Positions 12,584-32,036 of a stretch of DNA of 44,825 bases are shown in pieces. Under the pieces are notes generated by a model. It searched no databases. It was not told where the DNA came from and was given only the letters and a program-made list of their open reading frames with translations. How positions within the stretch are numbered: the stretch's first letter is position 1; every line of letters starts with the position of its first letter. The position numbers and the translations under genes are program-made. Source of the stretch: Escherichia phage Gluttony_ev152; the sequence record NC_073087.1; one strand, 5' to 3'.

Positions 12584-12913
12584 ATGAATGTAAACGACGC
12601 AATCGAAATGTTAACGAAGACTGTTTGCAGTGAGACAAGCCGGTCATGGGCATACACCGATGCCGTGGGGGCTGTGTTATTTGAAATCGAACGACTGCGG
12701 CTTACCGAAAAAGAATTGCGCGCCAGGCTGGAACTACTCAACGGTACAGCAGCAAGCAAGCTGCAAAAACACAATGAAGAAATGGAAGAATACAAAAAGC
12801 AGGTTATCCGTTTGCGCGCCGAGGGCAAATCTTGGGCGATGATTGCCGAGTTGACCGGAATTAATCAGAGCACAGTGCGCTCCTGGGTACGCAATAATAA
12901 AACTTCTAAGTAA
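12584..12913 (+). CDS. helix-turn-helix DNA-binding protein (putative regulator)
   Basis: C-terminal GKSWAMIAELTGINQSTVRSWV resembles resolvase/sigma-region-4-type HTH; first rightward gene after divergent promoter. Confidence 0.65.
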   Translation: MNVNDAIEMLTKTVCSETSRSWAYTDAVGAVLFEIERLRLTEKELRARLELLNGTAASKLQKHNEEMEEYKKQVIRLRAEGKSWAMIAELTGINQSTVRSWVRNNKTSK

Positions 12914-12923
12914 GGCCACGGCA

Positions 12924-15188
12924 ATGAGCTTGATTAAATTCGCTGTAACAAAACCCGCTAAAAAAGGCGAAAAAGCCAGGGCGGAAAACTTCCAGATGAC
13001 GACCGATGAGTTTTTCGAATTTATCAAAGATGCGAAAGAAATATCCTCGGTGCATATCAACAAGACGGAAGATAAAGCCGAGTATGCGCGCCGCAAGCGT
13101 AAGGCCGATGGCATCGTGGCGTATACCAGTGACGGATTGCGCCGCAAGACCAGTGCCGTGGACCGCTCGATCCTGTTCTTCGATATTGACCGCACCGACA
13201 CCCGCACCCTGCGCCGCTGCCGTAAGGCGTTCATCGACGCGGGTCTGGAACACGTATTTCACACCACCACCGGCGACCGCCACCCGCTGAAGGGCGGCAC
13301 GCGTTGCGCCCGTTTCCTGGTGCTCACTGACAAGCCTGTACCGGCTGAAGACCTGGGCCGCGTCCAGTATGCACTATTACACCAACTGGGCCTGTCAGAT
13401 GTGGACTTCGACGATTGCACGAAAGACACTAACCGCCTTATGTACCTACCACACCAGCAGTCTGTTATTAAGTGCCACTATGGCAAGCGCGCCCGCGTCC
13501 GTCGTCTGCTCCGCCTGGCTGATAAGCTGGGAGTGGAAAAAGAGGAAGTACGCCGCGAGCTTACCCAGGGCGACGACGCAGTGGCAGACGGCATTCTGGA
13601 CTGGTGCTTCCAGGCCGGATTCGAGGAGTTATCTTCTGGTCGCGGTTATGAAGTGCCGTGCCCGAACGAACATCTGCACAGCGGCGAAGGGTCGACGGCT
13701 ATCATGGTCAAGGATGGCGAGATCCGTTTCAAGTGTATGCACACCGGCAACGAGTGTTGCTCGGAGCTAAATAGACACCAGCACCTTGCGCTACGTCTCA
13801 TCGGGATACCGGACCACCTGAACGTCGAACCGCACAACATGTCACGTAAGCAAATCGCCGCCATCCTCCCAGGGCTGGACGACGAGGAAGTCGAATCCTT
13901 ATATGAACATATTGTTGATGCGGTTGGCGACGGCGAAGAATACGGCGTGTGCACCGATGCGGATCTGGATAACGAGCCGGTTGCGCTGTTCAGTAAGCAC
14001 GACCCGATTATCGAGGGGTTGGTTAACTTTAAATCAACCTGGTATATGGCGGGTGAGTCGAACATCGGTAAATCGTTCTACGTGCTGGGGCAAATGGGTG
14101 CGGTTGCCGCGGGGATTCCGTTCGGTGGCGCGAAGGTCGTCCAGTCTCATTGCTTCTATTTCGACGCGGAAGGTGGCGAAGCCTCTAACCAGCGCAAAGA
14201 AGCATTGCAGATTAAATATGAGCACGACCTGGACAAGCTGCACATTATCGATCTGCAATCACGCGGCTGGGATATCACCAGCAAATCCGGCTTGCGTGAA
14301 GTTATCAGCTTCATCAACCGCACCGCTAACGGCGAGCCGGTTGGCCTGGTGGCGTTCGACTCACTCAACCAGACTGTTGCGCTGCGGTCCGCCGATGCAA
14401 AACCGTTCGACGAGAATAACGCCAGCGATATGGGTGAAGTGGTCAAAGCGCTGAAGGCCATTGCGGAAAATACAGGCGGCAGTGCGGGCGTCATCCACCA
14501 CCCGGCGAAGGGTGCAAACGGCAGCAGATCTCCCCGTGGGTCCGGCGCGCTGCATGGCGCTGTCGATTCTGCGTTCTTCCTGGAGCAACCGGACGACAAT
14601 CAGCCGGGCCAATTGAACCTGTATCACGAAAAGGCACGTAACGGCATCAAGCAAGCGCCGCGCGGCTTCGTCCTGCTCAAGTGCAAGGTTAAGGTGGATC
14701 TCCGCAAGTCCGAAGCGTTCGAATCACACCAGTCCACCAGCACCGGGCCTGACTTCGGCGACGTGGTTGCCGGTTGGGACGTCAAGCCAATTGCATCCAC
14801 GCCACGCGACGAGACTCTTTATCTCGTACCGGTCGCCCTGGCACCGTTCGCCATCGAACAGGCGAAGGCCGCGGGCAAGGCCGCAGTTAAGGATGAGAAC
14901 GCCGCAGGACCGCGCAATGAAAAAGAGAAAGTGCTTTATGCGGCACTGGAAAAACTGATGGAAGATAACCCGGACCATACCGGATTCAGTAAATCGGCAA
15001 TTGTCCGCCAGGCGGGATTGGCAAAAGGTGGCACATCGACGAAGGCAATAGACGATATGGTCGAGCGCGGCGTGCTTGGGTTTTACACAGACCCACACAC
15101 CGGGGCCATCTATGGGTCGTCTAATATCGTCATCAAAACGAATATACCCATCACGCTTTCGGCTACCGATGACGACCTGAAAGATTAA
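12924..15188 (+). CDS. primase/helicase (RecA-like P-loop ATPase domain)
   Basis: 754 aa; Walker A GESNIGKS; IHHPAKG motif typical of RepA/AAA_25-type helicase domains; N-terminal region may be the primase part. Confidence 0.8.
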   Translation: MSLIKFAVTKPAKKGEKARAENFQMTTDEFFEFIKDAKEISSVHINKTEDKAEYARRKRKADGIVAYTSDGLRRKTSAVDRSILFFDIDRTDTRTLRRCRKAFIDAGLEHVFHTTTGDRHPLKGGTRCARFLVLTDKPVPAEDLGRVQYALLHQLGLSDVDFDDCTKDTNRLMYLPHQQSVIKCHYGKRARVRRLLRLADKLGVEKEEVRRELTQGDDAVADGILDWCFQAGFEELSSGRGYEVPCPNEHLHSGEGSTAIMVKDGEIRFKCMHTGNECCSELNRHQHLALRLIGIPDHLNVEPHNMSRKQIAAILPGLDDEEVESLYEHIVDAVGDGEEYGVCTDADLDNEPVALFSKHDPIIEGLVNFKSTWYMAGESNIGKSFYVLGQMGAVAAGIPFGGAKVVQSHCFYFDAEGGEASNQRKEALQIKYEHDLDKLHIIDLQSRGWDITSKSGLREVISFINRTANGEPVGLVAFDSLNQTVALRSADAKPFDENNASDMGEVVKALKAIAENTGGSAGVIHHPAKGANGSRSPRGSGALHGAVDSAFFLEQPDDNQPGQLNLYHEKARNGIKQAPRGFVLLKCKVKVDLRKSEAFESHQSTSTGPDFGDVVAGWDVKPIASTPRDETLYLVPVALAPFAIEQAKAAGKAAVKDENAAGPRNEKEKVLYAALEKLMEDNPDHTGFSKSAIVRQAGLAKGGTSTKAIDDMVERGVLGFYTDPHTGAIYGSSNIVIKTNIPITLSATDDDLKD

Positions 15189-15265
15189 ATCCTGCGCGCA
15201 TTGGTTGCCGATATGGGAATTCCCATATCGCTAAAAGGTTAAATTTTGCGCGCATTGGTTGCCAT
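15189..15265. promoter_or_regulatory. direct repeat - 20-bp perfect palindrome - direct repeat, candidate protein-binding or origin element
   Basis: TGCGCGCATTGGTTGCC twice flanking GATATGGGAATTCCCATATC, immediately after primase/helicase stop. Confidence 0.4.
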
Positions 15266-15348
15266 TTTGAGTGTTTTTATCAGGTCGTATTGGTTGCCGT
15301 GTAGTGTGAATATAGTGAATAGTTATGCAGTTTTGTTGCATAAAGTAA

Positions 15349-15510
15349 GCGGGACAAAAAGCGGGACAAACAAGGGGCGGGACAAAGCGGGACAGCACCC
15401 CCGTCCCGCCCCTGATGGCGCGGCCTGGAGAGGAGCGGGACAGGCGGGACAACCCCCAGTCTTTCAGACTAGACGGGGGTCAATGGCCCCCCTCGTCTGA
15501 GACTGAATAA
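15349..15510 (+). repeat. noncoding cassette A: GCGGGACA direct-repeat array plus conserved 53-nt element
   Basis: Six direct and one inverted copy of GCGGGACA(A/G) within about 100 bp, followed by AGTCTTTCAGACTAGACGGGGGTCAATGGCCCCCCTCGTCTGAGACTGAATAA (15458-15510). Confidence 0.7.
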
Positions 15511-15665
15511 AATCCGGGGATTGCAAAATACACGGCAGCATGATGCGAATTGCGGTCGACGATGAACTAGGCAACCAATGCGAGTTGCATTATGCTGAGT
15601 GAAAAATGCGGTTTGCAGTCGCAGCAGATAGCGATCAACTTTTTCATGCGCGTGATTAATATTGG

Positions 15666-15694
15666 TTGCGCCCAGCCTGGCACCTTGCTATATT
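15666..15694 (+). promoter_or_regulatory. promoter candidate, TTGCGC-N17-TATATT
   Basis: Hexamers with 17-nt spacer; ATTGGTTGC motif overlapping -35 and again immediately after -10; leader TATATTGGTTGCACACCAACATGAGGAC nearly identical to the leader at 26033-26061 on the minus strand. Confidence 0.55.
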
Positions 15695-31337: not shown

Positions 31338-31651
31338 TTGAGGCGGCGCGACGCTTTTATGGGCCGCCGCCACCCTCCGAAGATTTAGCCGCAAGTTTAT
31401 GGGGTGCGACCCCCGAAGATGTTTGTCCGCCTGTTGCGCTGTGGCCTGACAACGCGAAGATAGTCGCAGTCTTCACAGATTGCGCTACACAATGGCGCAC
31501 CGGATTTGGTGGCGCATACGGCATCGACTACGGCGTGCTGGAGTGGTTATTTAAGATGCACGGTATCGAAAACGAGCAGCGCGCGTTTAAAGATATCAAG
31601 CTAATGGAACGAATCGCGCTTGATGAGATGGCGCAGCAGAACCCCGCATAA
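30975..31651 (+). CDS. tail assembly chaperone GT, predicted -1 programmed frameshift product
   Basis: Heptamer A_AAA_AAC at 31328-31334 just before the G stop; the -1 frame is open for 105 codons from 31334 (LIEAARRFYGPPPP...) to TAA at 31649-31651 with no ATG start; matches lambda G/GT paradigm. Confidence 0.5.
31328..31334 (+). other. -1 ribosomal frameshift slippery heptamer A_AAA_AAC
   Basis: Located 1 codon before G stop; downstream -1 frame open without start codon. Confidence 0.5.
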
Positions 31652-31655
31652 TGAA

Positions 31656-31973
31656 GCGGGACAAAACGGGACGTCCCGTTTTGTCCCACCCCTGTGAAAC
31701 TGCATACCTACTCACTTCCATTGCATAATCTAAAAGCGGGACAAGCGGGACGTCCCGTTTTGTCCCACCCCACAAAAGTGCATACGTATTCGGTTTTCGT
31801 GCATAAAACAAACGGGACAAAAAGCGGGACAAACACTAGGCGGGACAAAGCGGGACAGCACCCCGTCCCCGCCAGTGCTGCCGCGGTTTTCAGCCGATCG
31901 GGACAGCGGGACAGCACCCCAGTCTTTCAGACTAGACGGGGGTCAACGGCCCCCCTCGTCTGAGACTGAATAA
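31656..31973 (+). repeat. noncoding cassette B: GGGACA repeat array with two 30-bp palindromes plus conserved 53-nt element
   Basis: Perfect palindrome GGGACAAAACGGGACGTCCCGTTTTGTCCC (31658-31687), near-copy at 31738-31766, about 10 direct GCGGGACA copies, then the same 53-nt element as cassette A with one substitution (31921-31973). Confidence 0.7.
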
Positions 31974-32036
31974 GGTTTGTTTTGAAATCGCTGATACAAT
32001 ATCCATCGGCAACTGCATAAAAAAGGGGACTGCATA

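Follow-up and report, generated by a model that had tools for sequence, protein, structure and literature searches.

Cassette A of Escherichia phage Gluttony_ev152 (NC_073087.1; the window is the whole stretch of 44,825 nt analysed here), a Dhillonvirus of the HK578/SO-1-like coliphages, is proposed to be an iteron-type replication origin for the self-loading primase-helicase encoded by the adjacent gene, a reading which, by analogy with known initiators, is given a probability of roughly 0.6. The cassette lies in a 534-bp gap 3' of open reading frame (ORF) 12924..15188, which encodes the primase-helicase, and its full paralogue, cassette B, lies between the tail-chaperone and tape-measure genes and, together with two short units (B1 and B2), may be a second origin or an enhancer like crr of phage P4. 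The proposal is based on the linkage of the module to the primase-helicase down to 39% protein identity, on the winged helix carried by this protein, on short lineage-specific words that change in a coordinated manner, and on words that flip orientation in place. The anatomy, its conservation, the variation of the words and the protein folds are established by the comparisons presented below, and from them we infer binding, melting, priming and origin activity.

In cassette A, two related AT-rich 14-mers spaced by exactly 21 bp are followed by an array of the 8-bp word GCGGGACA and by a long terminal palindrome (Table 1). An earlier note on this DNA, made from the letters alone, had reported six direct copies and one inverted copy of the word after the primase-helicase gene, and the positions agree with this count. 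Its judgement that the clustering is non-random also holds, as GCGGGACA occurs 14 times in the window against 2.15 expected, a number reached in none of 100 shuffles, and 12 of the 14 exact copies are inside the two gaps. The first 14-mer box and the short units B1 and B2 had escaped that note. Both gaps are matched by 157 GenBank phage records, where prior annotation of the region is confined to one "repeat_region" and one predicted "terminator".

The relatives of the primase-helicase, designated by L numbers, were drawn from IMG/VR, GenBank and SRA assemblies with the full-length protein as query (a C-terminal fragment query gave two matches). The same architecture is present in at least ten lineages with 39-88% primase-helicase identity, and at 12 loci, in every module-bearing lineage examined (window, L014, L017, L025, L026, L029, L086, L102/L107, L456 and VSiA), the module starts 12-128 nt past the primase-helicase stop codon; L458-L464 fit the same position pattern. 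In general, the module opens with the pair of AT-rich 14-mers (TGAATAGTTATGCA, in many cases exact; spacing 21 bp), continues with 3-4 words and then 1-2 inverted ones and, after a spacer of 25-45 nt, has 2 more words, a long imperfect palindrome and finally a conserved ACGGCAGCA box. The divergent L461-L464 have a looser layout, with words in both orientations and a large GC-rich hairpin, and keep the ACGGCAGCA box. The sequence ACGGCA(G/A)CA follows the module in L017, L025, L026, L029, VSiA and L461-L464, and the ACACGGCAGCA box is found in L457 too. Salmonella phage VSiA (Cornellvirus) has the primase-helicase copy only, with no gap 5' of its tape-measure gene, and this copy is therefore the common denominator of the module-bearing phages. 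The module thus predates the genus Dhillonvirus. An exact 28-mer of the L025 hairpin was found in one copy per contig only in a scan of viral contigs, while scans with GGGATAAAGGGATA and with TCCGACA-N-TCCGACA gave chance matches only among the matches listed. No comparable module follows the primase-helicase of the Kagunavirus relatives (33% identity).

About 12 lineage-specific words of 6-8 nt are carried on this constant architecture: CGGGACA (window, L014 and L017), GTGGCAA / GTGTGGCA (L460), GTGTGCCAA (L458), GGTGCCA (L459), (T)CCGACA (L025 and L456), CGGACA and CCGACA (L086), CGGACAA (L102 and L107), GGGATAA (L026), GGGGATGAA (L029), GGGGGAGA (VSiA and L090), TTGCGAGT (L461), TTCCGCACA (L464) and GGGAT(C/G/A), including GGGGATC (L462 and L463). 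L458, L459 and L460, members of the Dhillon-like clade, have primase-helicases 68-69% identical to that of the window, and their words differ while terminal hairpin and boxes are recognisably the same; evolution of the word is therefore much more rapid than that of the scaffold. At the same time, the word changes together at the two loci. A single SRA contig contains GTGTGGCA both in cassette A (L460) and in the pre-tape-measure cassette (L465), L467 has a B region built from GTGTGGCA that includes a short unit equivalent to B2, CGGGAC is common to L017 (cassette A) and L087 (cassette B), and in a distant lineage (46% identity) GGGAT(C/A) is found after the primase-helicase (L462) as well as in a complete pre-tape-measure module (L466). 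Because of this coordinated change, both loci are, to judge from the sequences, read by one trans-acting specificity factor.

The behaviour of individual words points to sites on duplex DNA. CGGGAC is invariant at the word positions of 23 aligned Dhillonvirus cassettes, in which the linkers drift; the inverted word varies in position and sequence among relatives and is degenerate in several B cassettes; and word 2 is inverted in L087_B, L458 and L460 at a position where it is direct elsewhere. Such a flip would be tolerable for a protein-binding site, whereas an RNA motif would become its own complement, which argues against an RNA motif.

The presumed reader of the words is the primase-helicase, as no other protein is found with the module in all lineages. 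These proteins are roughly 750 aa long and have a C-terminal winged helix, at about residues 665-735 in the protein of the window. The model of the N-terminal 335 residues (predicted local distance difference test score, pLDDT, 84) matches in Foldseek the archaeo-eukaryotic primase (AEP) domain of cyanophage S-2L PrimPol (6zp9, E=5e-6) and, with E=3.8e-3 and a probability of 0.99, the catalytic domain of RSF1010 RepB' with initiator hairpin DNA (3h25). The helicase domain belongs to Pfam AAA_25 (RecA-like, RepA type; E=6e-19), its direct match to RepA (1g8y) being weak (E=0.25-0.47). In an alignment of seven Dhillon-like members, few stretches are as poorly conserved as the winged-helix region (pairwise identity of 0.52-0.54 vs 0.7-0.88 for the catalytic cores), and every change of word is accompanied by a different putative recognition helix: GGTSTKAIDDM and GGTNTTAINAL go with CGGGACA, GGSSTKPINDL with GTGGCAA, GGSTSKPVYDL with GTGCCAA, GGRRRPA.. 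with C(C/G)GACA, and GGDRYKILKDL with GGGGGAGA. The earlier note had put forward the helix-turn-helix (HTH) protein encoded upstream (12584..12913) as a binder of the array. This candidate was rejected, as its HTH does not vary among four phages that each have another word, and as it is absent from the module-bearing VSiA, L086 and L102.

Cassettes A and B are co-oriented, and the duplication of the whole module in the same orientation, as claimed in the earlier note, was recovered in an ungapped 203-nt alignment (15310-15512 vs 31773-31975) with 162 identical positions (80%), whereas identity in the flanks is 24-32%. Between the cassettes, identity over words 1-4 is 91%, word spacing is equal (12, 16, 10, about 48 and 8-9), and the terminal element does recur almost identically, with 98% identity over 49 nt and a single differing loop base. 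B1 and B2, in which the words are written GGGACAAAACGGGAC|GTCCCGTTTTGTCCC, precede cassette B in the 384-bp gap 5' of the tape-measure gene, so that 7 CGGGAC words in cassette A are matched by 13 in the B region (B1, B2 and cassette B), 16.5 kb away.

Table 1. Positions of the module components and of the gene for their proposed reader in the window.
Feature	Position	Strand	Sequence or remark
Primase-helicase (proposed trans-acting reader)	12924..15188	+	AEP primase fold, RepA-like (AAA_25) helicase, C-terminal winged helix
Cassette A	15316-15505	+	
AT-rich region with two related 14-mers	15300..15350	+	Box 1 15316-15329 TGAATAGTTATGCA; box 2 15337-15350 TGCATAAAGTAAGC
Words 1-4 (iteron-like)	15349..15394	+	GCGGGACA at 15349, 15361, 15377, 15387
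Inverted word	15400..15409	-	GTCCCGC (15403-15409) within CCCGTCCCGCCCC; can pair with word 3 or 4
Words 5-6	15435..15451	+	GCGGGACA at 15435 and 15444
Terminal 49-nt imperfect palindrome	15457..15505	.	CAGTCT..CAGAC..GGGGG / CCCCC..GTCTG AGACTG
Conserved ACACGGCAGCA box, right of module	15529..15539	+	Core ACGGCAGCA
Short unit B1	31645..31690	+	CGCATAAT box, then 2 direct and 2 inverted words; palindrome 31658-31687
Short unit B2	31701..31770	+	TGCATA boxes at 31701 and 31722 (21 bp apart), then 2 direct and 2 inverted words
Cassette B (full paralogue of A)	31779..31968	+	Boxes start at 31779 and 31800
Cassette B words	31812-31819, 31824, 31840, 31850; words 5-6 31898-31913	+	
Cassette B degenerate inverted word	31864-31872		
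Cassette B terminal hairpin	31920-31968		

The two non-word elements of the module are also conserved. The box region of cassette A is richer in AT than any other 40-mer neighbourhood of the genome; its best 40-nt segment is 75% AT, at the 99.9th percentile, and abuts a stretch of 20-27% AT, while the boxes of cassette B are 62-65% AT (96th-98th percentile). Box 1 is exact in L025, L026, L029, L102 and VSiA, at protein identities of 39-50%. This AT-rich region is a candidate DNA-unwinding element or, alternatively, a weak promoter. The terminal hairpin folds at -28 kcal/mol on either strand, and its arms have been replaced among lineages with pairing kept (AGTCT/AGACT, TCATC/GATGA, TCCTC/GAGGA and TCTCC/GGAGA) around a G-run/C-run core. 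When arms were swapped among nine lineages, cognate pairs averaged -26.7 and chimeras -18.7 kcal/mol, a mean cost of 8 kcal/mol; cognate arms beat every chimera in only 2 of the 9, because all lineages share the G-run/C-run core. Alignment of the cassettes and their relatives, which the earlier note had recommended as a search for compensatory changes in the hairpins, yielded one such change, from A-T to G-C, between the paralogues L017 and L087. Folding is about equal on the two strands, with a slight energy preference for the minus strand (10 of 11 with RNA parameters and 9 of 11 with DNA parameters) and G-U counts of 17 vs 17. The palindrome is a candidate single-strand initiation or assembly hairpin. 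In L025 (2790-2798) and in L102/L107 its apical loop holds an inverted word (TCTGTCGGA / TCTGTCCGA); the loop of the window, TCAATGG, is without one, and the loop is the most variable part of the hairpin within Dhillonvirus.

These components suggest a mechanism in which the winged helices would bind the 8-bp words as double-stranded iterons, and the bound words would concentrate and assemble the helicase beside the pair of AT-rich 14-mers, which would melt. The GC-rich palindrome at the far end could then be extruded as a hairpin and signal the RepB'-like primase domain to load or to prime, in the way of the single-strand initiation (ssi) hairpins of RSF1010 and the stem-loop of pRN1. Cassette B, with B1 and B2, would provide this protein with further binding sites at another locus, acting either as a second origin or as a cis enhancer of the P4 crr type.

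Several points weigh against this proposal. Origin activity and binding are deduced from sequence comparison and by analogy, and the covariation of word and winged helix is a correlation confounded by phylogeny, since all proteins diverge between lineages; no natural swap of winged-helix domain and word was found among the relatives compared. The words flank the boxes on both sides in L025, VSiA, L026 and L029, and only on the right side in the Gluttony window. The 14-mer is conserved exactly in very distant lineages, more than an unwinding element needs, and the boxes can be read as a promoter with a -35 TGAATA, a 17-bp spacer and a -10 CATAAA (AATAGT in L025 and L026). Transcription is predicted to begin at the first word in this case, and a transcribed role for the cassette is therefore possible. 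A second origin within a tail operon would be unusual, and there is one hairpin per cassette where RSF1010 has the ssiA/ssiB pair. Finally, the GC-skew minimum is at about 12.0-12.5 kb and not at the cassette; however, it coincides with a switch in gene orientation and is for this reason uninformative rather than contrary.

The promoter-like reading of the boxes leads to an unlikely alternative, in which the cassette is a transcription unit, with the 14-mers as promoter and a rightward structured RNA of about 170 nt, or with the words as late activator sites. Such an RNA could be a leader, an antiterminator of the HK022 put or lambda nut type, a primer RNA or a protein sponge. In addition to the promoter elements, the orientation of both cassettes with their downstream genes, the fold of the plus strand (z = -2.8) and the presence of two paralogous copies, as for putL and putR of HK022, are all in its favour. 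By contrast, a sigma-70 scan calls no promoter in cassette A, where the -10 of the window is without its final T. The "promoter-like TTGTTGCATAAA" of the earlier note is accordingly present as a box, the second of the two 14-mers, and not as a called promoter. The downstream genes, moreover, have a good promoter of their own in the window, L025, L026 and L029. In the window this is the sigma-70-like TTGCGC-17-TATATT at 15666-15694, about 160 nt beyond the module and upstream of ORF 15723, which overlaps two ATTGGTTGC boxes and is unflagged by the scan, its -35 matching 3 of 6 bases; stronger promoters occupy the same position in L025 (TTGACA-17-TATTGT) and L026 (TTGACT-17-TATTAT). An RNA is further disfavoured by the flip of word 2 at a fixed position, which would complement any RNA motif, by the degeneration in many B cassettes of the inverted word that closes the first hairpin, and by the lack of an Rfam match and of a covarying candidate RNA-binding protein; the Rfam gathering scan of the whole window and the E-value scans of both gaps returned only sub-threshold microRNA-like hairpin noise. 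As VSiA also has no copy before its tail genes, the suggestion that the cassettes act as promoters of late operons is not borne out, and of the three roles offered in the earlier note the iteron origin is favoured, and those of a late activator array and of a structured RNA are given a low probability. A hybrid, no more probable than the transcription unit itself, would be a transcription-primed origin, in which the 14-mer promoter yields a G-rich, word-bearing R-loop used by the AEP primase-helicase tethered through its winged helix. Cassette B would in that case tie the start of replication, or the gene dosage in its vicinity, to the expression of late tail genes, or would enhance by looping in the manner of P4 crr, and the module would be a dual replication and transcription element with a fast-evolving protein-DNA specificity code.

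Further readings differ on what the sites are for. The winged helix may bind the words as regulatory sites (autoregulation, roadblock or handcuffing) with the true origin elsewhere, for example in the divergent region near 12.4 kb. Binding by Rep serves autoregulation and handcuffing in iteron plasmids, which provides a precedent, and the predicted binding is the same as in the origin reading, with the GC-skew minimum as an additional argument; but the array is downstream of the gene rather than at its promoter, the AT-rich element and the conserved hairpin would be left without a role, and the skew minimum coincides with a change of coding strand. This reading is considered quite improbable. 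It is doubtful to a still greater degree that the hairpins are terminators or insulators, ending the replication operon on the plus strand or blocking antisense transcription on the minus strand, with the repeats as their building blocks. The GenBank record of CS16 does annotate a terminator in the corresponding region, the scan weakly flags the palindromes of B1 and B2 as terminator-like on the minus strand, and the minus strand of the array resembles a Rho loading site in being rich in C and poor in G; yet no T-run follows the terminal hairpin on the plus strand, the scan calls no terminator at the terminal or word hairpin of cassette A, six exact 8-mers are not needed for termination, and neither a coordinated word change at two loci nor the tracking of one protein's DNA-binding domain would be expected. 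Least probable of all is that the cassettes are packaging sites (pac or cos) recognised by the small terminase subunit, for which repeat arrays of this short kind are typical targets. Here, however, the module is linked in all lineages to the primase-helicase and not to the terminase genes, which are found at about 20.2-22.2 kb. A pair of identical sites separated by 16.5 kb would be unusual for packaging, and the Dhillonvirus 5' cos sequence ATCTTAAGGG, a 10-nt 5' cohesive end reported from PhageTerm for Dhillonvirus EE09 (PMC10673088), has an exact match at 2869-2878 on the minus strand, beside a pair of the TTGGTTGC boxes described below. Other Dhillonviruses have been reported as headful packagers (PMC9022532), which also speaks against a packaging site in the cassettes, and the published packaging modes of Dhillonvirus, with a cos end in EE09, thus disagree.

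The iteron-origin proposal can be compared with several known systems. One is that of the Staphylococcus aureus pathogenicity islands (SaPI), where the C-terminal winged helix of Rep or PriRep binds 6-12 short iterons immediately 3' of rep around an AT-rich centre, iteron specificity differs between relatives, and a primase-Rep fusion is found in SaPI5 (PMC9371898). Short lineage-specific iterons directly 3' of an initiator-helicase ORF, a C-terminal winged helix and an AT-rich region are shared with the phage module. The SaPI Rep helicase, however, belongs to superfamily 3 (SF3)/AAA+ whereas that of the phage is RecA-like AAA_25, the SaPI iterons are symmetric around the AT-rich centre whereas the words are one-sided in the Gluttony window, and the SaPI ori has neither a large conserved hairpin nor a second copy. 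In pRN1 and Bordetella phage BIP-1, an essential stem-loop, conserved in structure and not in sequence, is located 3' of the gene for an AEP primase-helicase-winged-helix protein (PMC4234260). The order seen with pRN1 ORF904, that is, a small regulator gene, the AEP primase-helicase-winged-helix gene and a long stem-loop, is the same as in the phages; by contrast, pRN1 has an SF3 helicase and no iterons, and its stem-loop is about 100 nt long vs 49-65 nt in the phages.

The oriV of RSF1010 contains iterons (3.5 of 20 bp), GC-rich and AT-rich segments and the ssiA and ssiB hairpins on opposite strands, and is served by RepA, RepB' and RepC. The same three activities are predicted for the phage protein, whose N-terminal fold matches RepB' with hairpin DNA (3h25) and whose helicase is of the AAA_25/RepA type, and the phage site likewise combines iterons, GC-rich and AT-rich segments and a putative hairpin priming signal, a parallel with RSF1010 that is also mentioned in PMC4234260. 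The differences are that in the phage the activities are fused in one polypeptide, with the winged helix replacing RepC, and that its words are of 6-8 bp with irregular spacing, as opposed to 20-bp iterons, with one palindrome per cassette. In phage P4, octamer iterons in both orientations are present at two loci, ori and crr, where the ~770-aa alpha primase-helicase recognises them through its C-terminal winged helix. This system, summarised in PMC4234260, resembles the phage module in having iteron-like octamers in both orientations at two separated loci of one genome. Alpha, however, joins a Toprim primase to an SF3 helicase, and the phage protein an AEP fold to an AAA_25 helicase. Bacillus phage SPP1 has two distant cassettes of initiator-binding repeats, oriL and oriR, of which one adjoins or overlaps the gene for the initiator and the second is surrounded by late genes. 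Two copies of a repeat cassette far apart in one phage genome are thus a shared trait. In SPP1, however, origin binding is the task of a separate initiator, G38P, and helicase, loader and repeat type are different. As membership in each of these protein families fails on at least one defining feature (helicase class, fused vs separate initiator, or iteron length), the cassette may be said to work like these systems and not to be a member of them.

An iteron origin beside its initiator gene is the classical arrangement and not a new kind of system. A useful and testable model is nevertheless provided by the conserved pair of AT-rich 14-mers together with words that evolve fast, a hairpin that covaries and the additional copy in the tail operon. 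About a dozen pairs of word and winged helix on a constant scaffold offer a natural series for the evolution of initiator-origin specificity and for orthogonal phage replicons. Dhillonviruses, with related phages such as Cornellvirus and many uncultured siphoviruses, are frequently met as phages of E. coli and Salmonella and are used in phage collections and in biocontrol, and a literature search found no origin, repeat or transcript map described for Dhillonvirus and no origin for Cornellvirus or relatives; a match to phiLLS concerned an unrelated genome of about 105 kb. The duplication is in addition an assembly hazard, as cassettes 80% identical break short-read, metagenomic and SRA assemblies. 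Contig ERR11172925_9173 (L460/L465) runs from cassette B to cassette A and has the same 27-mer at both ends, and L208 (IMG/VR contig 3300045988_009799) begins 96 nt before the tape-measure gene.

Some observations concern the surroundings of the module and more distant sequences. ORF 15246..15500, which overlaps cassette A, was rejected as a coding sequence, having no Pfam or PHROG match and containing 1-nt frame-breaking indels in close relatives, and the window contains no tRNA or tmRNA genes. The ACACGGCAGCA box (core ACGGCAGCA) is repeated several times in L461-L464, and its minus strand reads TGCTGCCGT, which is -35-like in some lineages. In the Kagunavirus relatives L468 (4066-4140) and L469 (2776-2838), GTGAATAGT is located in the spacer of TTGACA-17-TATAGT promoters beside an HTH gene. 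In L118 (7201-7350; IMG/VR contig 3300037153_000557, 55 kb), TGAATAGTTATGCA is followed by TGGACA/CGGACA words with inverted copies and a hairpin, the array coming after the gene of an unrelated 474-aa protein with a winged-helix-like C-terminus; this may be a distant instance of the module design on a different helicase, and the 14-mer match could also be due to chance.

A separate repeat, the 8-mer TTGGTTGC (usually ATTGGTTGC), occurs in 21 copies in the window against 2.0 expected, a number reached in none of 100 shuffles. Its copies (e.g. at 973/985, 2882/2899, 9474/9490, 12385, 15201, 15255, 15290, 15571, 15662/15693 and 26057/26071) are often paired 12-31 bp apart, and six of them are located around cassette A. 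L458-L460 retain the box, which takes the form TTGGCTG / GCTGCCAAC in more distant lineages. Since the HTH of the protein encoded at 12584-12913 is invariant in the phages that keep the TTGGTTGC box, the two may form a regulator-operator pair; alternatively, the box may be a -35-linked promoter element. Directly after the first TTGGTTGC box 3' of the primase-helicase stop codon there is a perfect 22-bp palindrome, CGATATGGGAATTCCCATATCG, at 15209-15230.

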